Source of the DNA: Candidatus Daviesbacteria bacterium GW2011_GWA1_41_61
GTDB lineage: Bacteria; Patescibacteriota; Microgenomatia; Daviesbacterales; UBA10151
Reading direction: 5' to 3'
DNA length: 64,000 nt
Assembly: GCA_000997385.1 (NCBI GenBank)
Contig: LCBT01000002.1
Span: 119,424-183,423 of the forward strand
Part shown: positions 53,966-63,175 of the stretch, one piece after another
How positions within the stretch are numbered: the stretch's first letter is position 1
Layout: every line of letters begins with the position of its first letter
Notes under the pieces: model-generated
Database searches by the model: none
Seen by the model: the letters and a program-made list of their open reading frames with translations, nothing else
What the model was told of the DNA's origin: nothing
Position numbers and translations under genes: made by a program

Positions 53966-54691
53966 ATGATTCAAGCAGAAAGGTTTTTAGCAGAAACAGT
54001 AGCTAGATTGCCTGAAGGTTCTGAAAGGGCAAGATTGGCAGGTTGGCTTCAAGAGGCTAGAGATTATAATGCTAACAAAAAACCTGAAGCTGCTTCAAAA
54101 ATAGACCTTCGTCAACAAACATATGATCTTTTAACTCTTGTTAGAAAACCATCAGAACAAGAGAGGGAAGTTTTAAAAAGAAGAGGTATAGTATTTCTGC
54201 CTTTAGAAACAAAATCATATGCACAAGTTGTTTCAGAAGATCCAGATTATTTTTGGTCGGGTGAAGGTGAATTAGATTATGCAAATATTAGACCAGAACT
54301 TCGAGATTACGCACTACCAGTGGCAGTAGAAGTAGGATTTAACCCAACACAACTAGCTTTACCTGATAGTTTTAGAAAATCCCGACCAGTTCAATTACAA
54401 ATGATTGAGGGTTACTCCCAACAGTTACAAGCTGAATTTCCCGATGCTAGAGTAGTTATGCTTCCATCAACAGGATACGCACAGGGAGACAGAGCTTACA
54501 AGGTAGCAACTGGTGAAGTATTATTTAGAAATTACTTTGCAAGGGCTTTAGATAACCTTTCTGAGGTCGATGCTGCTTATGCGGGTCGTCTTGATCCTTC
54601 GAGGCGATTCTTTGTCCATACTTGGTTTGCTGACGATGGCCTTGACTTTGTTGGGGCTGTTCCCGCGGTAGTGTTTGTTGGTAATAAGTAA
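53966..54691 (+). CDS. Hypothetical protein whose 3' end is partially duplicated downstream
   Basis: 241-aa ORF with no recognisable domain. The C-terminal 42 codons recur, degenerated, at 55044-55165. Confidence 0.4.
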   Translation: MIQAERFLAETVARLPEGSERARLAGWLQEARDYNANKKPEAASKIDLRQQTYDLLTLVRKPSEQEREVLKRRGIVFLPLETKSYAQVVSEDPDYFWSGEGELDYANIRPELRDYALPVAVEVGFNPTQLALPDSFRKSRPVQLQMIEGYSQQLQAEFPDARVVMLPSTGYAQGDRAYKVATGEVLFRNYFARALDNLSEVDAAYAGRLDPSRRFFVHTWFADDGLDFVGAVPAVVFVGNK

Positions 54692-55040: not shown

Positions 55041-55301
55041 TTGGTCAATGCTGCTTATGCAGGTCGAAATGATCCTTCGAAGCAATTCAATGTCAATGAT
55101 TGGAATGCTGACAATGGCAATGACAATGTTGGGGCTGTTCCCGCGGTAGTTTCTAGTTTTAAAAGGTTCAATCTTGTACTGATTTTTGCTTGGTGGATCG
55201 TATCCAACCACCAAGCATCTTACCTAGCAGTGATTGAGAAATATATCCAAGATCAGGGGAGAGTTGAGGATCTGAAGCAGCTAAAATTGTTTGAGCTTTG
55301 A
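55041..55301 (+). pseudogene. Gene-end remnant: degenerate duplicate of the 3' end of the 53966-54691 gene, fused to unrelated sequence
   Basis: VNAAYAGRNDPSKQF...NVGAVPAVV parallels VDAAYAGRLDPSRRF...FVGAVPAVV. The 23-nt stretch gttggggctgttcccgcggtagt is identical in both copies. Confidence 0.45.
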
Positions 55302-56230: not shown

Positions 56231-58792
56231 TTGGCTGGTTTTATGAAATTCACTAAATTTTTTTCCTGGACATTCTTAGGTTTGGCCTTTGTTACTTTTA
56301 TTTTCTTCTCCGGCATTGTTTCCTTGATTACTGACTGGTGGTGGTACCAAGAAGTAGGGTTTACCGAAATCTTTATCAAATCGCTCAGCGCAAAAATCAT
56401 TGTGGGAGCTCTAGTAGGAATTCTTGCTGCTGCCTTTCTTCTTACCAACTTATCTTTTGCCATCCGTTCAAAAATACCCTGGATGGCAGCCATCCCCGAA
56501 GCCCTAATTGGTACTAATCAACCCCTTAGCCTGAATAGCCGCTTACTTGGAAAGCTCGGCATTATTTTAAGCTGTATTATTGCCCTTTTTATCGGTCTTT
56601 TAGCCTCAAGCAGCTGGCACGAGGTTTTAAAGTTCCTATCAAGCGTGCCATTTGGCCAAAAAGACCCGATATTTGCTGCTGACGTATCTTTTTACGTGTT
56701 TTCCCTGCCTGTTTTTTCTTTGGGGCTTGGCCTTATAAAAACCGTTATTTTAATATCGCTTATCGGTTGCGGCGCAATCTACATTCTGCGGGGCAGCCTC
56801 AATTTATCAAGCCTTTTCCCTAAAATTAACCTCTCCAAATTAACCGGAAAACCTGAAAGTCTGATTATTAGACCTACGAAAGATCAAACCGAACCAAAAG
56901 CCAGACTGCATATCAGCATTCTGCTAGCTCTTTTTCTTACAACCATTGCCGTCGGTACCTATCTTTCTCTCTATAATTTACTTACCAGCCAGAGCGGCCC
57001 GGTGTTTGGCGCGACCTTCACCGATGCCAATGTCATGGTACCGATCCTTCGCGTATCTGTTTTTGTTTACGGGGCGGCTGCCATCCTGGCATTATTTTAT
57101 GGTGTGAGCGGAAAAATTGCGCCTCTTTTTGGAGCAATTTTTTTAACTGTAATAGTCGGGTTTGCTTCTTCAATCATCCCTGGTGTTTTTCAAAAACTGG
57201 TGGTTGCACCCAATGAACTTACCAAAGAAACGCCTTTTATCAAATACAATATTGAGGCCACCAATAAGGCTTATGGTCTGGACAGAGTGGAAGAGCGGGA
57301 AATAGCCGCGGATAAACCGATTACAGCTCCTGATATAGCAGCCAACAATCTGACCATCAAGAATGTCAGACTGTGGGACAGAGCGCCGCTCCTGTCCACT
57401 TTTTCGCAAATCCAGGAGATTAGAACTTACTACGAGTTTACCTCTATTGATAACGATCGTTATACAATCAACAATGAACTGCGCCAAATTATGCTTTCTC
57501 CCCGGGAATTAGCCTCGGACAGCCTGCCGAACAAAAACTGGATTAACGAGCGGCTGACCTTTACTCACGGCTATGGGGTTGCCGGCGGACCAGTGAACCA
57601 GGTTACTCCGGAAGGATTGCCGGTTTTATTTGTCAAAGACTTACCTCCAAAATCCGAAGTCAAAGAACTTGAGGTCACAAGACCGGAGGTTTACTACGGG
57701 GAAATCCCCAATGATTATGTCATAGTCAAAACAAAGTCCAAAGAATTTGATTATCCCAAAGGAGATGAAAATGTGTATACTACATACGGCGGAGTAGGTG
57801 GCGTTGAGATTAACTCACCCCTTCGCCGATTCCTGTATGCGCTGCGCTTTGGTTCCCTCAAATTATTTTTATCTGCTGATGTAACATCGGAGAGCCGTAT
57901 CCTTTATTATCGCAATATAAAAGAAAGAGTTGCTAAAATTGCCCCGTTTCTTGCCTTTGACCGAGACCCATACCTTGTAATCGCTGAAGGTAAAATGTAT
58001 TGGGTACTTGATGCCTATACCTCAACAGACCATTATCCGTATTCTCAACCGCTACCGCTAAATGGCGGTAACGTAAACTATATAAGAAATTCAGTCAAGG
58101 CAGTAATAGACGCTTACAACGGGACAATCAAATTCTATCAAACAGATCCGGATGATCCGATTATCAAAACCTACGCCAAAATTTTCCCCAAAACTTTCCT
58201 TCCACTAACTGAGCTGCCCAAAAGTTTAACTGCTCATTTGCGTTATCCGCAAGATTTGTTCACTCTGCAAACAGCAATCTACACAACCTATCATATGGAT
58301 GATCCGCAGATTTTCTACAACAAAGAGGACCAGTGGGAAATTCCTGCTATTGCCCAGGGGGGCGAGGCACAACCAGCCAAGGTACCGGTAATGGATCCTC
58401 GGCACATGATTATGAAGCTTCCCGGTGAGAAAGCCGAGGAGTATATTTTGATGCTGCCGTTTACCCCGCGGGCAAAAGATAATCTCTCTGCCTGGATGGT
58501 GGCCAGAAATGACGGAGAGCAGTATGGTAAGCTGGTTGTCTACCGCTTCCCCAAGGATAAACTGGTATTTGGTCCCAAACAGATTATCGGCCGAATCAGT
58601 CAGGATGCGCAGATCAGTCAGCAGATTTCCCTTTGGGATCAGGGCGGTTCGGAGGTAATTCAAGGCCCGCTTCTGGTCATTCCAATTGAGGAGTCTTTGG
58701 TCTATGTCCGTCCGCTCTACCTTGAAAAATCCCCGAACTCAAACGGGTCATTGTTGCATATGAGAACAAAATTGCCATGGAAGAAACATTAG
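56231..58792 (+). CDS. UPF0182-family large membrane protein, N-terminal 853 codons up to a frameshift
   Basis: The N-terminus DWWWYQEVGFTEIF has 7 TM helices followed by a large soluble region typical of UPF0182. The reading frame continues in the -1 frame from 58726 (see the next feature). Confidence 0.7.
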   Translation: MAGFMKFTKFFSWTFLGLAFVTFIFFSGIVSLITDWWWYQEVGFTEIFIKSLSAKIIVGALVGILAAAFLLTNLSFAIRSKIPWMAAIPEALIGTNQPLSLNSRLLGKLGIILSCIIALFIGLLASSSWHEVLKFLSSVPFGQKDPIFAADVSFYVFSLPVFSLGLGLIKTVILISLIGCGAIYILRGSLNLSSLFPKINLSKLTGKPESLIIRPTKDQTEPKARLHISILLALFLTTIAVGTYLSLYNLLTSQSGPVFGATFTDANVMVPILRVSVFVYGAAAILALFYGVSGKIAPLFGAIFLTVIVGFASSIIPGVFQKLVVAPNELTKETPFIKYNIEATNKAYGLDRVEEREIAADKPITAPDIAANNLTIKNVRLWDRAPLLSTFSQIQEIRTYYEFTSIDNDRYTINNELRQIMLSPRELASDSLPNKNWINERLTFTHGYGVAGGPVNQVTPEGLPVLFVKDLPPKSEVKELEVTRPEVYYGEIPNDYVIVKTKSKEFDYPKGDENVYTTYGGVGGVEINSPLRRFLYALRFGSLKLFLSADVTSESRILYYRNIKERVAKIAPFLAFDRDPYLVIAEGKMYWVLDAYTSTDHYPYSQPLPLNGGNVNYIRNSVKAVIDAYNGTIKFYQTDPDDPIIKTYAKIFPKTFLPLTELPKSLTAHLRYPQDLFTLQTAIYTTYHMDDPQIFYNKEDQWEIPAIAQGGEAQPAKVPVMDPRHMIMKLPGEKAEEYILMLPFTPRAKDNLSAWMVARNDGEQYGKLVVYRFPKDKLVFGPKQIIGRISQDAQISQQISLWDQGGSEVIQGPLLVIPIEESLVYVRPLYLEKSPNSNGSLLHMRTKLPWKKH

Positions 58793-59028
58793 AAGCAGGT
58801 CTTGCTAAGATATTTGGCACTGCCGAGGGCAAAGTAAAACCATCCGGGGAAACACCTGCCCCGAGTGCATCTACCGATGGAAGCAAAGAAGGTCTCCTTC
58901 AACAAGCCAGTCAGGCGTATGAAGCTGCTATCCGTGCACAACGGGAAGGAGATTGGGGGAGATACGGAGAGGAAATAAAACGCTTAGGAGAAATCCTAAA
59001 TAAGCTAAGCTTGCGTTCTTCGAACTAA
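58726..59028 (+). pseudogene. Frameshifted C-terminal continuation of the UPF0182 gene (-1 frame)
   Basis: Frame B reads KIPELKRVIVAYENKIAMEETLEAGLAKIFG..., a sensible continuation of ...PLYLEKSP. The shift maps to a C4 run at 58731-58734. Confidence 0.55.
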
Positions 59029-59128: not shown

Positions 59129-59710
59129 TTATTTTGCATTTTCTAACCAAGTTGCAAAATTGTTATATCCATTTCCGCTTATCCAATCATAACACTGAAC
59201 CCAACTTGACAGCTTGAAACCCTTGCCCCAATACTGTCTATCAAAACTGGCTGTCTTGGACGGCAAATCCTGATAAATCTTCCAATCTGTTCCGTCGTGT
59301 TCGTAATAGGTAATTCTCCTTCCGTCTTCGCTTGTCACAAATCCTAGAAAATCAAACGGATTTTGCCCCTGAAAAAAAGTCTGTCTATTTTTGTCAGGTA
59401 CGCTGTTTATATGAACGCCAAACAATGTATTTCCTCGATCATAACTTTTTAATATTTCGTACCTAACCCAACGCCTGTTCCAAGTATTTGTGCCAATAAG
59501 AACACAAGTAACGGTTGTGTCATCAAGGTTTGAATTTATAAGTCGTTTTACTGAATCGGCACCGTATCTTTTTGCATCTTCCCAAATTGAGGCATCAAAA
59601 AATCCTGCTTCTTGACCATTCGCTTTTGTAAAACCATGATTTCTTACAACATTGGCACGAAATGTTTTTACATCGTCATAATGAAAACTGAAGAATACCT
59701 GCTTTGCCAT
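59129..59710 (-). CDS. TIR-like domain protein (ThsB-like, DUF1863-type)
   Basis: From the internal Met it reads MAKQVFFSFHYDDVKTFRANVVRNHG ... FDASIWEDAK ... VTCVLIGTNTWNRRWVRYEI ... GVHIN ... NPFDFLG. This closely resembles Thoeris ThsB-type TIR proteins, as recalled from memory. The ATG lies 2 nt after the stop of the upstream TM-protein gene. Confidence 0.6.
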   Translation of the reverse strand: MAKQVFFSFHYDDVKTFRANVVRNHGFTKANGQEAGFFDASIWEDAKRYGADSVKRLINSNLDDTTVTCVLIGTNTWNRRWVRYEILKSYDRGNTLFGVHINSVPDKNRQTFFQGQNPFDFLGFVTSEDGRRITYYEHDGTDWKIYQDLPSKTASFDRQYWGKGFKLSSWVQCYDWISGNGYNNFATWLENAK

Positions 59711-59712
59711 AT

Positions 59713-60114
59713 TTAGTTTATTAAATACACAATAAAAAGCATGATAAAAATTAGGGATAGATAAAACCACAAAAGAGTCAGTGAAGACATTGAGCTTAAC
59801 CAACTGTTGCGCTTGTTCTTTTTATACTTCCGCGTGTCCATGGAAAAATCTATTTCTTTTTCATCAAGTTTTCTGACATCATCATATAAATCACGGAATA
59901 ATCGCTCTTGAGAAAGAAAATAACCGTCCAAAACCCAGAACATAATAACCGGAAAATAAGCAATGAAAATGTACTTCGGATTTGCATCCTTTGCAGATAA
60001 AGCAAAAAGTGCGGCAATCAATGTAATCGCCCATCCTTTCAGAAAAAACGAATTGCCTGCCATTTTATTGATGACTCCTTGAATGAACTCAAGATGTTTT
60101 CGCTTATTTTCCAT
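59713..60114 (-). CDS. Small 3-TM membrane protein coupled to the TIR gene (candidate effector, SLATT-like?)
   Basis: From MENKRKHLEF there are three hydrophobic helices (GWAITLIAALFALSA; IFIAYFPVIMFWVLDGYFL; LTLLWFYLSLIFIMLFIVYLI) and a charged loop. There are 2-nt gaps to both neighbours. No SIR2/SLOG/Macro domain is present. Confidence 0.45.
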   Translation of the reverse strand: MENKRKHLEFIQGVINKMAGNSFFLKGWAITLIAALFALSAKDANPKYIFIAYFPVIMFWVLDGYFLSQERLFRDLYDDVRKLDEKEIDFSMDTRKYKKNKRNSWLSSMSSLTLLWFYLSLIFIMLFIVYLIN

Positions 60115-60116
60115 AC

Positions 60117-60914
60117 TCAAATAATTACTGTTGCTTTTTCGTACAATATTGGTAAACAATCCTGCCTCATTCGAAATTTTGTGCCATGATTGTGCCCCGT
60201 GCGTGCGTCAAAATCCACAAGGATTTTGCCTTCTTCTAATGCTTTCAAAAATCCTTCAAAGCTGAATTTTTGCAACATCATTACTTTTGTGTAGTGATAA
60301 TATTCCTTTTTCCCTTCAATTTTTACTTCAGCCTGAACATAAAAAGTATTAAGTAATTTTGTTCCAGCTTTATGATCCAGATCATCAAAGCCCCAATATG
60401 GTTGTGGATTAAGTTCATCTAGTCCAACACGCTTTTTGACAGATTCAAGCCATTCTTTATGCCTTTTATCAACGCTTTCTGCATCGAAAGAAATTAAAAT
60501 TTTCCGCTCCTTACGGTCAATTACTACCATGAAACCACGATCGCTTCTTGCCAGCCCATGGATAGTAAGGCGAAAACTCATCTCGCCTTTTTGATATTTT
60601 TTACCGTCTTCTTGATGCGTCCAGCCGTATCCAGGCAAAAGGACTTGGGGGACGAAACGAACTGCTCTAGGTGAAGGCTCGGTATGAAAAAGGGTTGTAA
60701 GAGATGAAGAATTGAGTCGTTGCGCTTTTAATTCCCACTCCGCAGCATTTGGAATTGGTAAATTATTTTCTTTAATATCAAGTAAATCTTCGAGTGTGTT
60801 CCCTATCCCACCAGAGTTATCTCGCCGGGCGTTCGTAACCCAACCCATAGCGGCAATTTCTTTAAGTTTATCAATTAATGTTTGCTTTGAATAAATAATA
60901 GGTTTATCTGTCAT
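60117..60914 (-). CDS. Type II restriction endonuclease, MvaI/BcnI family
   Basis: GNTLEDLLDIKENNLPIPNAAEWELKAQRLNSSSLTTLFHTEP parallels the BcnI/MvaI N-terminal catalytic region (ENN ... GE.ELK ... NLTLFH..P). It is about 265 aa and immediately downstream of an N4-cytosine methyltransferase. Confidence 0.7.
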   Translation of the reverse strand: MTDKPIIYSKQTLIDKLKEIAAMGWVTNARRDNSGGIGNTLEDLLDIKENNLPIPNAAEWELKAQRLNSSSLTTLFHTEPSPRAVRFVPQVLLPGYGWTHQEDGKKYQKGEMSFRLTIHGLARSDRGFMVVIDRKERKILISFDAESVDKRHKEWLESVKKRVGLDELNPQPYWGFDDLDHKAGTKLLNTFYVQAEVKIEGKKEYYHYTKVMMLQKFSFEGFLKALEEGKILVDFDARTGHNHGTKFRMRQDCLPILYEKATVII

Positions 60915-60920
60915 TGTTAT

Positions 60921-61730
60921 TTACAAAAGACTAATTTGAGATTGGTCTATTCTAATCCTTTCTTCAGCCATATCGCAATATTCTGGCGAGATATCTATCC
61001 CAATATAATTTCGTTTGAAGTTTAGAGCGGATATTGCAGTTGTGCCAGATCCCATAAAAGGATCAAGGATAACTTTTGCATTTGTTGACGAGATAATTCG
61101 ATCAATTAATTTGACAGGGAAAGCGGCAGGGTGTTCGTTTTTCATCTCTTGTGTAAATTCCCAAACATCACCGTAAGCATTGGCTTTTGGTGCAAGTTTA
61201 AACCTCGGCTTTGCAATAAGATAAATTACCTCATAGGTGGGAAGAAAGTACCCTGCATTAAAATTAAGACCTCCTTTCCTCTTCCAAATAATAATTTGCC
61301 TGACAGGAAATCCAGCAACGATATCTTGACGATCTTGTAACAAGCCATCTTGAACACGCCATTTATGATTGTAGAAAATCGCGCCATCTTCTGGAATTAT
61401 TCTCATCATTTCATTCAAACACTCTTTTTGCCATTTAACATATCCATCATGGGGCATACAATCGTCGTGATGTGTGTATCCATTTTGGAGTGCAGCATTT
61501 GCCCACTTTCCGCCACGCCCATCTTTCATGCCGTTACCAGTTGAATTTTTGAGATTATACGGTGGTGAGGTAACAACTAAATCAACCTTTCCATCAGAGA
61601 TTTGCTTCATTATCTCGACAGCATCACCACATAGAATTCGATTTATAAAATCTTCCGGATATAAAAGCTTTTTAACACTCTTTTTGTTAGACTGATAGTC
61701 TAATCCAGTTTTGTTTATACCTTGTGGCAT
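60921..61730 (-). CDS. DNA N4-cytosine (or N6-adenine) methyltransferase, beta class, SPPY motif
   Basis: Motif IV DLVVTSPPYN precedes motif I DPFMGSGTT. The likely start is MPQGINK at 61730, 7 nt after the LexA-1 stop. The listed ORF extends to 61763. Confidence 0.8.
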   Translation of the reverse strand: MPQGINKTGLDYQSNKKSVKKLLYPEDFINRILCGDAVEIMKQISDGKVDLVVTSPPYNLKNSTGNGMKDGRGGKWANAALQNGYTHHDDCMPHDGYVKWQKECLNEMMRIIPEDGAIFYNHKWRVQDGLLQDRQDIVAGFPVRQIIIWKRKGGLNFNAGYFLPTYEVIYLIAKPRFKLAPKANAYGDVWEFTQEMKNEHPAAFPVKLIDRIISSTNAKVILDPFMGSGTTAISALNFKRNYIGIDISPEYCDMAEERIRIDQSQISLL

Positions 61731-61737
61731 TATAATA

Positions 61738-62355
61738 TTATCCATTGATTTTACTCTTCCCAAGTATACCTACAACCTTACCTAATAATCTAGTCTCAGG
61801 GTATATGGGAATATTTCTATATTTTGGGTTCTCCGGTTTCAGATAAACCTTACCATCAGCATGAATAAATCTTTTAACAGTAGTCTCGCCATCCCAACGG
61901 GCTAAAACTATGTCACCGTTTTTAAAGTCTTTTGCATACCTTACTAAAACAGCATCATCATCCTGTATTCCAGCACCAATCATAGAGTCTCCTTTTACTT
62001 TTACTACAAATAAATCTACTGTTGTTTCAATATCGCCTGCTGCTTTCCATTCAATATCTTCAAACGCTTGCATATATGCACCAGCTGCGCTGATTCCTAC
62101 ATATGGCATTATTGGTTGCGTGTCAAGAGCCTCAAATCCTTTTTGCAGAATCTTTAGTCCTCGTGCCATACCTTCTTCCTTCTTAATAAATCCCTTATTT
62201 TCTAATAAGCGCAAAAGGTCTAAAACTGATTGATTTGAAGAAACATTTAGTTCTTCGCGAAGATCTGCGAGTGTTGGGGGAAAACCTGAATCTTTGAGAG
62301 ATCGATAGATAGCTCTGAGCGTCTGTTTTTGCCGGGGGGTTAATTTACTTTTCAT
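61738..62355 (-). CDS. lexA: LexA-type S24 repressor, paralog 1
   Basis: LexA winged-helix N-terminus (LTPRQKQTLRAIYRSL ... FPPTLADLREELNVSSNQSV), an Ala-Gly cleavage site (SAAGAY), Ser (GDSM) and Lys (VKRF) of the S24 peptidase. The true ATG is 62353-62355. The listed ORF starts at a TTG inside the promoter. Confidence 0.8.
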   Translation of the reverse strand: MKSKLTPRQKQTLRAIYRSLKDSGFPPTLADLREELNVSSNQSVLDLLRLLENKGFIKKEEGMARGLKILQKGFEALDTQPIMPYVGISAAGAYMQAFEDIEWKAAGDIETTVDLFVVKVKGDSMIGAGIQDDDAVLVRYAKDFKNGDIVLARWDGETTVKRFIHADGKVYLKPENPKYRNIPIYPETRLLGKVVGILGKSKING

Positions 62356-62362
62356 AGAGTAA

Positions 62363-62391
62363 AATATACTGACTATATAGTCAGTTGTCAA
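62363..62391 (-). promoter_or_regulatory. Promoter TTGACA-N17-TATATT with the 18-bp palindrome ACTGACTATATAGTCAGT filling the spacer (putative LexA operator)
   Basis: -35 is rc of 62386-62391, the palindrome is at 62368-62385, and -10 is rc of 62363-62368. The ATG is 7 nt downstream, so the transcript is leaderless or nearly so. Confidence 0.6.
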
Positions 62392-63146: not shown

Positions 63147-63175
63147 AATATACCCGACTATTTAGTCGGGGTCAA
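63147..63175 (-). promoter_or_regulatory. Promoter TTGACC-N17-TATATT with the 18-bp palindrome CCCGACTA(AA/TT)TAGTCGGG in the spacer (putative second LexA operator)
   Basis: The palindrome is at 63153-63170. It shares the core GACTA-NN-TAGTC and the same promoter architecture as the site upstream of paralog 1. Confidence 0.6.

Follow-up and report, generated by a model that had tools for sequence, protein, structure and literature searches.

A thsF–thsB gene pair with very probable type V Thoeris identity in a Daviesbacteria genome

Organization of the thsF–thsB locus

The window analyzed here is a 64,000-nucleotide stretch of contig LCBT01000002.1 (positions 119,424 to 183,423) of Candidatus Daviesbacteria bacterium GW2011_GWA1_41_61, a member of the Patescibacteria; all coordinates refer to this window. 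It contains a co-directional cluster on the minus strand that is headed by a gene for a LexA-like repressor (61738..62355) with LexA DNA-binding and S24 peptidase domains (Pfam LexA_DNA_bind 3.5e-15, Peptidase_S24 2.7e-26). This gene is followed by a restriction-modification pair consisting of an N4/N6 DNA methyltransferase (60921..61745, minus strand; Pfam N6_N4_Mtase 2.3e-40, PADLOC MTase_II 4.3e-119) and a type II restriction endonuclease of the MvaI/BcnI family (60117..60914, minus strand; Pfam MvaI_BcnI 4.1e-66, PADLOC REase_II 2.5e-81), the latter lying outside the Thoeris genes proper. The cluster ends with thsF (59713..60114), encoding a small membrane protein, and thsB (59129..59710), encoding a TIR protein. 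The junctions between these genes, in the order lexA-like, methyltransferase, restriction enzyme, thsF and thsB, measure -8, +6, +2 and +2 nt: the methyltransferase probably starts at ATG 61745 and thus shares 8 nt with the end of the LexA-like gene upstream, and the TGA stop of the restriction enzyme is located 2 nt before the ATG of thsF.

Direct reading of the sequence places thsF between ATG 60114 and TAA 59713 (133 aa) and thsB between ATG 59710 and TAA 59129 (193 aa), both on the minus strand. Longer TTG-started open reading frames (224 and 148 aa) were rejected as artefacts; homologues begin at MENKRKHLE and MAK(Q/R)VFFSFHY. The two genes are separated by the 2-nt spacer AT (59711..59712, minus strand), and the junction reads TAA-AT-ATG. 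By eye, no obvious Shine-Dalgarno sequence is present upstream of the thsB ATG, in agreement with translational coupling; in related loci, the thsF–thsB gaps are mostly shorter than 20 nt. Further neighbors are another LexA-like gene (two in total) and a convergent UPF0182 gene, while no SIR2, SLOG or Macro gene was found near thsB–thsF. Two statements of the original prediction, namely the 2-nt stop-to-ATG gap and the lack of an adjoining SIR2/SLOG or Macro ThsA, are thus borne out by the junction and by the identity of the neighboring genes (ThsF, restriction enzyme, methyltransferase, LexA-like genes and UPF0182).

ThsB is closely related to a type I Thoeris TIR protein

ThsB is composed of a TIR domain and a C-terminal domain, with the catalytic Glu85 positioned within the motif WVRYE. 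The ThsB type originally proposed for this TIR protein is reflected in its matches to Pfam ThsB_TIR (PF08937, E = 1.7e-20) and PADLOC ThsB (6.8e-53), in addition to which it matches PADLOC PDC-M50B (5.5e-56). Residues 1–189 match PDB entries 6LHY and 9B7D at E about 1e-61, and pairwise comparison with the protein in these entries, ThsB of B. cereus MSX-D12, revealed 52% identity over 191 residues (E = 3e-70). In a gap-free alignment, window E85 falls on E85 of B. cereus ThsB, a residue whose mutation (E85Q) abolishes defence; the catalytic Glu, on which the original prediction had staked its case beforehand, is therefore present. The window protein falls in one clade with type I ThsB from B. 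cereus MSX-D12. It is presumed to serve as both phage sensor and signal synthase, and probably makes a small signal molecule that switches on ThsF.

ThsF is a three-helix membrane protein homologous to a validated effector

BLASTP aligned window ThsF over its full length with the 141-aa product of the gene adjoining thsB in B. thuringiensis DAR 81934 (50% identity, 131 aa, E = 7e-45), which is ThsF, the effector of a validated type V Thoeris system (bioRxiv 10.64898/2025.12.03.692087). Both proteins match the PADLOC HMM PDLC04686; window ThsF matches PADLOC PDC-M50A at E = 4.3e-55. A Kyte-Doolittle scan placed its hydrophobic segments at residues ~22–41, ~48–67 and ~108–133, and the loop between the last two (67–107) carries 11 K/R and 9 D/E. 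An AlphaFold2 model of the monomer, built from an input alignment without Bacillus and plasmid sequences, reached a pLDDT of 96.7 and contains helices at 2–43, 53–82 and 112–132; hydropathy and model thus agree with the three hydrophobic helices and charged loop first noted for this 133-aa neighbor of the TIR gene. The predicted layout comprises an N-terminal amphipathic helix, TM1 (~22–41), TM2 (~48–67) and TM3 (~108–133), with a charged loop, 67–107, that would face the cytoplasm. Positions conserved in ThsF are H7, Q12, R/K17, K26, W28, D63, E70 (invariant), R74 and Y77, and H7, Q12, K17, K26, D63, E70, R74 and Y77 would all be located on cytoplasm-facing segments. Comparison with PDB sequences and structures revealed no solved structure resembling the ThsF fold; searching PDB sequences with a ThsF family profile returned nothing real, the top match being a septin at E = 0.91. 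Tandem duplication was also considered for ThsF and rejected: when its profile was compared by hhalign with the 8xMP domain to which ThsF is fused in P0189, the probability was 0.2%.

Window ThsF has no significant match to any Pfam or NCBIfam family, its matches to Uma2, DUF2270 and RodZ all being sub-threshold. DUF2270 (PF10028) is stated as the Pfam annotation of ThsF by Yirmiya et al. (bioRxiv 10.64898/2025.12.03.692087). With the current Pfam model of this family, window ThsF scores 12.7 bits (E = 0.098), below the cut-off of 25, and B. thuringiensis ThsF shows no match at E ≤ 1. Among 117 representatives of the ThsF family scanned with Pfam, only six match DUF2270 at E ≤ 0.01, and the matches to DUF2270 are weak and scattered, as are those to DUF3278 (15 members). 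Since the validated ThsF and most family members lack a DUF2270 match, this label is a poor definer of ThsF, and missing it does not count as an argument against type V membership. Annotation pipelines based on Pfam will consequently miss type V systems, which are detected by PADLOC PDC-M50A or by direct homology to ThsF.

The original prediction also likened the membrane protein to SLATT proteins. Accordingly, it could represent a SLATT-type effector, belonging either to a type VII-like Thoeris system or to a borrowed CBASS module: both are small alpha-helical membrane proteins that adjoin TIR genes, and type VII Thoeris does combine TIRs with effectors of the SLATT kind (bioRxiv 10.64898/2025.12.03.692087). 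However, the SLATT families of Pfam match neither the window protein at E ≤ 0.1 nor the 117 family members at E ≤ 0.01, the only PADLOC match is to PDC-M50A, and the direct homology is to ThsF. The likeness to SLATT is not upheld by these comparisons, and a SLATT-type effector is highly improbable at this locus compared with a ThsF effector.

Assignment of the gene pair to type V Thoeris

Type V Thoeris was introduced, together with experimental tests, in a preprint of December 2025 (Yirmiya et al., bioRxiv 10.64898/2025.12.03.692087). The window pair, thsF followed by thsB, very probably constitutes an anti-phage system of this type. The features of type V Thoeris shown for the window pair are a ThsF homologue, its three helices, an adjacent TIR gene with the catalytic Glu and a pairing conserved across genomes; in addition, each of the two proteins is homologous to a validated component, and the genes are tightly coupled. 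The window gene pair is already known: the TIR domain listed in Table S1 of the preprint as IMG 2627819578 ('DUF2270 - Type V') is identical to residues 3–114 of window ThsB. No new claim is made for the locus, because the gene is already included in that table. An earlier description is PDC-M50, a PADLOC candidate system proposed through 'guilt-by-embedding' and left untested and without a mechanism (Payne et al., bioRxiv 10.1101/2024.01.29.577857). The adjacent window genes match its two models, PDC-M50A (4.3e-55) and PDC-M50B (5.5e-56), both at E about 1e-55; PDC-M50 had no function attached to it, which type V Thoeris now provides. A literature search for the name PDC-M50 yielded no match. 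Through ThsF homology and the Table S1 entry, the combination of a TIR signal generator with a small membrane-disrupting effector, recognized here from sequence alone, corresponds to published type V Thoeris and has since been validated as such; its novelty did not survive, since the system has been published, the window gene appears in Table S1 and PADLOC had defined PDC-M50 earlier.

The window system shares with that of B. thuringiensis the same effector family (50% identity, three transmembrane helices, about 135–140 aa) and the arrangement as a two-gene co-directional cassette whose TIR partner carries the catalytic Glu. The two differ in TIR clade, as the window TIR is a 193-aa protein similar to the B. 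cereus type I ThsB whereas that of B. thuringiensis has 252 aa, and in gene order, thsF preceding thsB in the window whereas thsF lies directly downstream of thsB in B. thuringiensis, where Table S2 of the preprint assigns consecutive gene IDs to TIR and effector (bioRxiv 10.64898/2025.12.03.692087). Unlike the B. thuringiensis system, the window cassette resides in a host of the Patescibacteria (Daviesbacteria) and is joined to a restriction-modification operon.

The ThsF family is large and its members are paired with diverse TIR genes

One search identified at least 2,495 ThsF homologues at E ≤ 0.001, and a second returned 4,523 cluster representatives at the same threshold, numbers that go well past anything expected by chance. 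Judged by these homology searches, the ThsF family appears to be much larger than reported, and close relatives are common in genomes of Patescibacteria, a group in which little work on defence has been done. In 51 of 59 thsF loci from GTDB species of many phyla, one or two co-directional TIR-like genes are positioned beside the thsF homologue within 1.2 kb, a count that includes one doubtful case (L046), which owes its place solely to a match of the sequence to itself and whose protein shows no TIR domain in Pfam. Five of the eight unpaired loci are contig ends, fragments or a copy disrupted by an IS element (L029), which leaves three (L035, L036 and L043). The adjacency of thsF and a TIR gene was also found on plasmids of Priestia and Klebsiella and in phage-like elements of Vibrio. 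The distribution of thsF is patchy, identity reaches 78% across phylum boundaries, and the pattern looks like the outcome of horizontal transfer.

These observations bear on whether the two genes form a unit at all. A conserved housekeeping membrane protein could have come to lie by coincidence beside a stand-alone TIR gene, and the one point in favor of this is that the small protein carries no curated family name. This explanation, to which we assign a vanishingly small probability, is effectively refuted by a pairing that persists in 51 of 59 loci from numerous phyla and extends to plasmids and phage-like elements of Vibrio, by the patchy and seemingly horizontally transferred distribution and by junctions of just 2 nt; the membrane protein is hence not a housekeeping protein without TIR partners, and the two genes are read as one system. 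Across the loci, the effector is conserved (50–78% identity), while the TIR partners are diverse, belonging to several seed families, and are often duplicated. A conserved effector combined with diverse, often duplicated sensor TIRs represents a Thoeris-like evolutionary pattern. In two family members (P0140 and P0147), a SLOG ligand-sensor domain is fused to the ThsF module, which fits a role of ThsF as a nucleotide-triggered membrane module. A homologous methyltransferase is found within 5 kb of thsF in 18 of the 59 loci; together with the restriction-modification genes directly upstream of thsF in the window, this was counted in favor of a defence context.

Proposed mechanism and identity of the signal

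According to the proposed mechanism, ThsB would remain inactive until phage infection and, once activated, would turn NAD+ into an isomer of cyclic ADP-ribose, with 3'cADPR (1''-3' gcADPR) as the most likely product. ThsF would assemble in the membrane as a homo-oligomeric ring, and the signal would bind to pockets on its cytoplasmic side, formed by the N-terminal amphipathic helix (H7, Q12, K17 and K26) and the helix continuing TM2 (D63, E70, R74 and Y77). Once bound, the signal would open the assembly or distort it, membrane integrity would be lost, and the infected cell would stop growing or die before the phage cycle is completed. Oligomer and pocket correspond to a feature taken for type V Thoeris, in which ThsF would be a channel built as a heptamer-like homo-oligomer, with positively charged pockets where protomers meet; for the window proteins these, like signal identity, topology and defence phenotype, draw on published work or on inference. 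ThsF has no separate soluble sensor domain, and ligand binding must therefore come from its own helices.

Similar designs are found among other defence systems. In types II (transmembrane-Macro effector, His-ADPR) and VII (SLATT effector, cADPR), a signal made by a TIR likewise acts on a membrane-breaching effector; window ThsF differs from these in that it shows neither a Macro nor a SLATT domain. CBASS and Pycsar also have small transmembrane effectors, which are short, helical and, as ThsF would be, switched on by a nucleotide second messenger, but they show no sequence relationship to window ThsF in PADLOC or Pfam, and the enzyme that makes their signal is a CD-NTase or pyrimidine cyclase instead of a TIR protein. 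Type I Thoeris of B. cereus MSX-D12 is similar in its ThsB, a close homologue with conserved E85, and differs in that a SIR2-SLOG ThsA adjoins thsB there. The window has no nearby ThsA, and its effector is a membrane protein, not an NADase as is type I ThsA.

Both B. cereus MSX-D12 ThsB and the type V ThsB of B. thuringiensis produce 3'cADPR (bioRxiv 10.64898/2025.12.03.692087). Because of the full-length identity of 52% and the conserved E85, window ThsB probably makes the same 3'cADPR signal as its B. cereus counterpart. For the window system as a whole, this signal is suggested by its relationship to two ThsBs that make 3'cADPR and to a ThsF that responds to it. The phage protection known for type V Thoeris is that of Bacillus homologues only: the B. 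thuringiensis system protected B. subtilis and became toxic when 3'cADPR was added, the Vibrio cholerae system gave no defence in E. coli, and addition of 3'cADPR was not toxic with the system of Bacillus sp. 1NLA3E (bioRxiv 10.64898/2025.12.03.692087). The signal or trigger may thus differ among type V members, since the 1NLA3E system is not triggered by 3'cADPR. The window system could then be the same system using another signal, such as canonical cADPR, 2'cADPR, N7-cADPR, His-ADPR or another ADPR derivative, or could depend on an extra infection cue for ThsF. Along with the behavior of 1NLA3E, the several new Thoeris types noted in the preprint with other or unknown signals and the several different families of TIRs that partner ThsF speak for this alternative, whereas the full-length similarity of window ThsB to a known 3'cADPR producer and that of window ThsF to the specifically 3'cADPR-responsive B. 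thuringiensis ThsF speak against it. We consider another signal unlikely but by no means negligible, and retain 3'cADPR as the favored candidate.

A more radical departure would make the TIR protein itself the killer, that is, an NAD+-depleting effector for which the membrane protein acts as anchor, sensor or regulator, with no diffusible signal involved. Bacterial TIRs that work as NADase effectors are indeed known, among other settings, from CBASS, Pycsar, TIR-pAgo and AVAST, and nothing in the sequence by itself shows signalling. In the validated homologous system, however, 3'cADPR was present in filtered lysate of infected cells carrying only ThsB, 3'cADPR was toxic to cells with the system, and the sponge protein Tad1 lowered its defence (bioRxiv 10.64898/2025.12.03.692087). 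Window ThsB, moreover, falls within the signalling clade of type I Thoeris. A killer TIR is therefore very improbable, and a signal-producing ThsB that acts through ThsF is preferred.

The adjoining restriction-modification operon

The restriction enzyme gene and thsF are probably co-transcribed because of the 2-nt junction between them, and since the cassette is attached through this junction to the end of the operon, restriction-modification and Thoeris are probably transcribed together in the window genome. A scan of 58.7–63.7 kb for promoters and terminators found 20 promoter-like sites compared with 14 ± 4.1 in shuffled sequence, which is not above expectation, and operon boundaries were therefore set by gene junctions only. 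One promoter-like site (62391–62363; 11 of 12 positions matched) lies upstream of the LexA-like gene, and the palindrome GACTATATAGTC is located just upstream of the same gene, at 62371–62382. The palindrome GACTANNTAGTC occurs twice in the window, a count that is not significant, as 31 of 100 shuffles reach two with one mismatch allowed. That the LexA-like gene and the methyltransferase represent a recently frameshifted fusion was rejected: identity to fused forms is only ~30%, and the window has a clean ATG/TAA overlap.

In other genomes, a LexA-like (S24 self-cleaving) repressor is fused to the methyltransferase. In Patescibacteria the cassette is often welded to restriction-modification operons, in the window under a LexA-like gene, which points to joint regulation of restriction and abortive infection. 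Rather more speculatively, and with considerable doubt, thsF–thsB in Patescibacteria might form the last module of a single operon of lexA-like, methyltransferase and restriction enzyme genes, in which self-cleavage of the repressor upon DNA damage or infection would release the expression of both defences. Such an operon, if real, would amount to a layered defence, with restriction first and abortive infection second. As a side observation, the LexA-headed restriction-modification operon joined to the pair may be fresher than the pair itself.

Identity of the gene pair

Both genes are on the minus strand: thsF, a 133-aa ORF (ATG 60114 to TAA 59713), is followed by thsB, a 193-aa ORF (ATG 59710 to TAA 59129), and the junction reads TAA-AT-ATG, confirming both the places of the genes and the 2-nt stop-to-ATG gap of the original prediction. 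Longer TTG-started versions of both ORFs in a mechanical ORF list were rejected because the homologues begin at ATG codons, and the short forms are thus taken as the genes. The 133-aa protein contains three hydrophobic segments (about residues 22–41, 48–67, and 108–133) and a 41-residue loop (67–107) with 11 K/R and 9 D/E. Its very confident AlphaFold2 model (pLDDT 96.7, built on 92 homologues) has helices at residues 2–43 (long), 53–82, and 112–132, so that hydropathy and model agree with the three hydrophobic helices and charged loop proposed earlier.

No significant family was found for the 133-aa protein in Pfam or NCBIfam. The first lead to its identity was a match to the PADLOC membrane protein model PDC-M50A (4.3e-55), the paired TIR model of which, PDC-M50B, matches the 193-aa protein (5.5e-56). 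In PADLOC, PDC denotes untested "phage defence candidates" predicted by guilt-by-embedding (bioRxiv 10.1101/2024.01.29.577857). Type V Thoeris was recently defined as ThsB together with ThsF, an effector with three membrane-spanning helices, the AlphaFold3 model of which is a homo-heptameric channel whose protomers have positively charged pockets between them (Yirmiya et al., bioRxiv 10.64898/2025.12.03.692087). The effector labels in Table S1 of that preprint are inherited from cluster representatives and noisy by the authors' own warning, and effector membership was therefore tested directly by homology. The Bacillus thuringiensis ThsB from Table S1 was used as a query, retrieving an identical database protein (P0271), the contig of which was then fetched. 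The product of the gene directly downstream of this TIR has 141 aa and three hydrophobic segments, and that of the upstream gene has none; since TIR and effector gene IDs are consecutive in Table S2 of the preprint, the 141-aa protein was identified as B. thuringiensis ThsF. The 133-aa protein aligns with it over the whole length (50% identity, E=7e-45), and one PADLOC model is common to both. Homology to this validated protein establishes, at the sequence level, that the 133-aa protein belongs to the ThsF family. A relationship to SLATT-type effectors, suggested previously, is not supported by family searches with the window protein and family members.

The system is already known. The Table S1 entry IMG 2627819578, "DUF2270 - Type V", has a TIR-domain sequence identical to residues 3–114 of the window's ThsB, and the best database match of the small protein (Candidatus Daviesbacteria GW2011_GWA1_41_6..., 100% identity) is likewise exact; the gene pair is thus already catalogued, as a type V Thoeris listed in the preprint. 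What the locus still offers is a warning for annotation and the link of the pair to restriction-modification and LexA-like genes.

The warning concerns DUF2270, the annotation given to ThsF in the preprint. In current Pfam, DUF2270 (PF10028) scores 12.7 bits against the window protein (E=0.098; cut-off 25) and has no match to B. thuringiensis ThsF at E<=1. It reaches E<=0.01 in only 6 of 117 ThsF family representatives, and weak matches to DUF3278 are commoner (15/117). The failed label is a practical annotation warning, not evidence against ThsF membership: pipelines that rely on Pfam will fail to detect the effectors of type V Thoeris.

ThsB and the proposed mechanism

Pfam ThsB_TIR (PF08937) matches the 193-aa protein (E=1.7e-20), as do PADLOC ThsB models. 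Residues 1–189 match the structures of B. cereus MSX-D12 ThsB (PDB 6LHY and 9B7D, E about 1e-61; 52% identity), titled "putative cyclic ADP-D-ribose synthase ThsB1", and both domains, TIR and C-terminal, are covered by the match. The catalytic Glu, whose absence would have spoken against a signal-generating TIR, was looked for and is present: the alignment is gapless through residue 102, so that window E85 (in WVRYE) corresponds to B. cereus E85, the residue whose replacement in E85Q abolished defence. B. cereus ThsB is a type I Thoeris enzyme with the signal 3'cADPR (bioRxiv 10.64898/2025.12.03.692087), and this relationship would fit a 3'cADPR-responsive ThsF.

In the same preprint, the type V system of B. 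thuringiensis DAR 81934 protected B. subtilis, its ThsB produced 3'cADPR on infection, added 3'cADPR was toxic to cells with the system, and defence was lowered by Tad1, a sponge for 3'cADPR. These lysate, toxicity, and sponge experiments on a homologous system argue against the TIR protein itself being an NADase effector, which is unlikely. Adding 3'cADPR did not trigger one type V system, and another failed to defend E. coli (bioRxiv 10.64898/2025.12.03.692087); a signal other than 3'cADPR in the window's system is a rather improbable alternative.

The present analysis establishes directly that both proteins are homologous to validated Thoeris components, that ThsB retains the catalytic Glu, that ThsF has a three-helix architecture, that the two genes are tightly coupled, and that their pairing is conserved, supporting the reading of a TIR signal generator coupled to a membrane effector. 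In the proposed type V Thoeris mechanism, ThsB would sense phage infection and make 3'cADPR, and ThsF oligomers would bind this signal and disrupt the membrane. The positive-inside rule predicts a cytoplasmic location both for the N-terminal amphipathic helix, with 4 K/R, and for the 67–107 loop, with 11 K/R. The nearly invariant polar residues of ThsF (H7, Q12, R/K17, K26, D63, the invariant E70, R74, and Y77) sit on segments predicted to be cytoplasmic and may form a putative ligand pocket, in agreement with the basic pockets between protomers of the preprint.

Two database proteins carry the ThsF module C-terminal to an N-terminal SLOG domain: P0147, which matches Pfam SLOG cluster 2 (1.7e-15), and its homologue P0140. 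These may be the '4TM SLOG' candidate effectors of the preprint, and such fusions lend support to ThsF as a putative nucleotide-gated membrane module. In a third protein (P0189), the module follows an N-terminal 'octameric membrane protein' domain (8xMP, PF24838).

Distribution of ThsF and its TIR partners

A single search returned at least 2,495 ThsF homologues at E<=0.001, and a representative library yielded 4,523 ThsF clusters at E<=0.001, of which 2,550 reached E<=1e-10. Scanning one genome per GTDB species gave 59 thsF loci, mostly in the Patescibacteria group, with the remainder in Bacteroidota, Bacillota, Pseudomonadota, Thermodesulfobacteriota, Chloroflexota, Actinomycetota, and a few archaeal-labelled MAGs. 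Neighbouring ORFs were searched with eleven TIR seeds for co-directional partners within 1.2 kb of thsF. At least one TIR-like gene was found in 51 of the 59 loci, or more safely 50, as L046 was counted only through a self-match and shows no Pfam TIR domain. This conserved pairing refutes the alternative of a housekeeping membrane protein found without TIR partners. Of the eight partnerless loci, five are accounted for by a contig end, a short fragment, or interruption by a transposase gene; the other three are L035, L036, and L043. In the interrupted copy (L029:5001-6280), a 329-aa opposite-strand gene, transposase-like by eye, truncates thsF after residue 97. This locus lacks a following TIR gene and appears to be an inactivated system.

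The best seed families of the partner TIRs are several (among them the window's type and the 162-167-aa, 123-aa, 220-230-aa, and B. thuringiensis 252-aa types), and about sixteen of the loci have two TIR-like genes. ThsF identity to the window protein is 50-78% across loci, and that of the neighbouring TIRs is often as low as 31-45%; the Saccharibacteria and Ratteibacteria ThsF copies reach 77-78% despite distant phyla. A well-conserved ThsF beside a divergent ThsB implies that the effector is often transferred horizontally and that its sensor is swapped. In the classic pattern of Thoeris, sensors diversify and multiply around a conserved effector, as they do here. The adjacency of thsF and TIR genes also occurs on Priestia and Klebsiella plasmids, and ThsF homologues (41% identity, E=7e-17) were found at positions 2222-2527 of three Vibrio phage-like elements (10N.286.55.* 'PE', about 14.35 kb), which suggests that satellites or other mobile elements spread the system.

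Restriction-modification and LexA-like neighbourhood

Upstream of thsF on the minus strand (60117–62391) lie a LexA-like gene, an N4/N6 methyltransferase, and an MvaI/BcnI-family restriction enzyme, co-directional with thsF and thsB. The LexA-like stop overlaps the likely methyltransferase ATG by 8 nt, 6 nt separate methyltransferase and restriction enzyme, and the restriction enzyme ends 2 nt before the thsF ATG (junctions -8, +6, +2, and +2 nt through thsB); from these tight junctions the restriction and Thoeris genes are probably co-transcribed. A homologous methyltransferase occurs within 5 kb of thsF in 18 of the 59 loci; it overlaps or abuts the thsF start in six (L013, L014, L015, L023, L026, and L044) and ends 23 nt before it in L057. 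In L005:1836-3392 (-), a LexA DNA-binding domain, an S24 peptidase, and an N4/N6 methyltransferase are in-frame in one 518-aa protein (Pfam), and the proteins at L017:3068-4600 (-; 510 aa) and L021:327-1955 (-; 542 aa) each match the LexA-like gene of the window as well as its methyltransferase. All three fused forms are in Patescibacteria loci, next to thsF, whereas in the window the two parts, about 30% identical to the fusions, are separate overlapping genes. To our knowledge, LexA-methyltransferase fusions have not been described. The gene order and the fusions suggest, as a hypothesis, one operon that combines restriction with abortive infection and is controlled by a LexA-like protein; a promoter scan of the region was not significant.

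Still further upstream is another LexA-like gene. The palindromes GACTATATAGTC (62371-62382) and GACTATTTAGTC (63156-63167) are each just upstream of one of the tandem LexA-like genes and overlap promoter-like -10 elements. These are the only two copies in the 64-kb window, a count that alone is statistically non-significant, and they could be operators for LexA-like autoregulation.

Other observations in the window

The UPF0182 gene (56231-58792, +; Pfam E=5e-287) has an apparent frameshift near an A5/C4 run (about 58730-58795), and its C-terminal part, beginning PELKRVIVAYENKIAMEETLE, runs on in another frame as the 58777-59028 ORF; the break reflects an indel in the assembly or a genuine frameshift. 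The ORF at 55041-55301 repeats the C-terminal motif (AYAGR.DPS...W.AD.G.D.VGAVPAVV) of the upstream 241-aa ORF (53966-54691, matching no Pfam family) and looks like a duplicated gene fragment.
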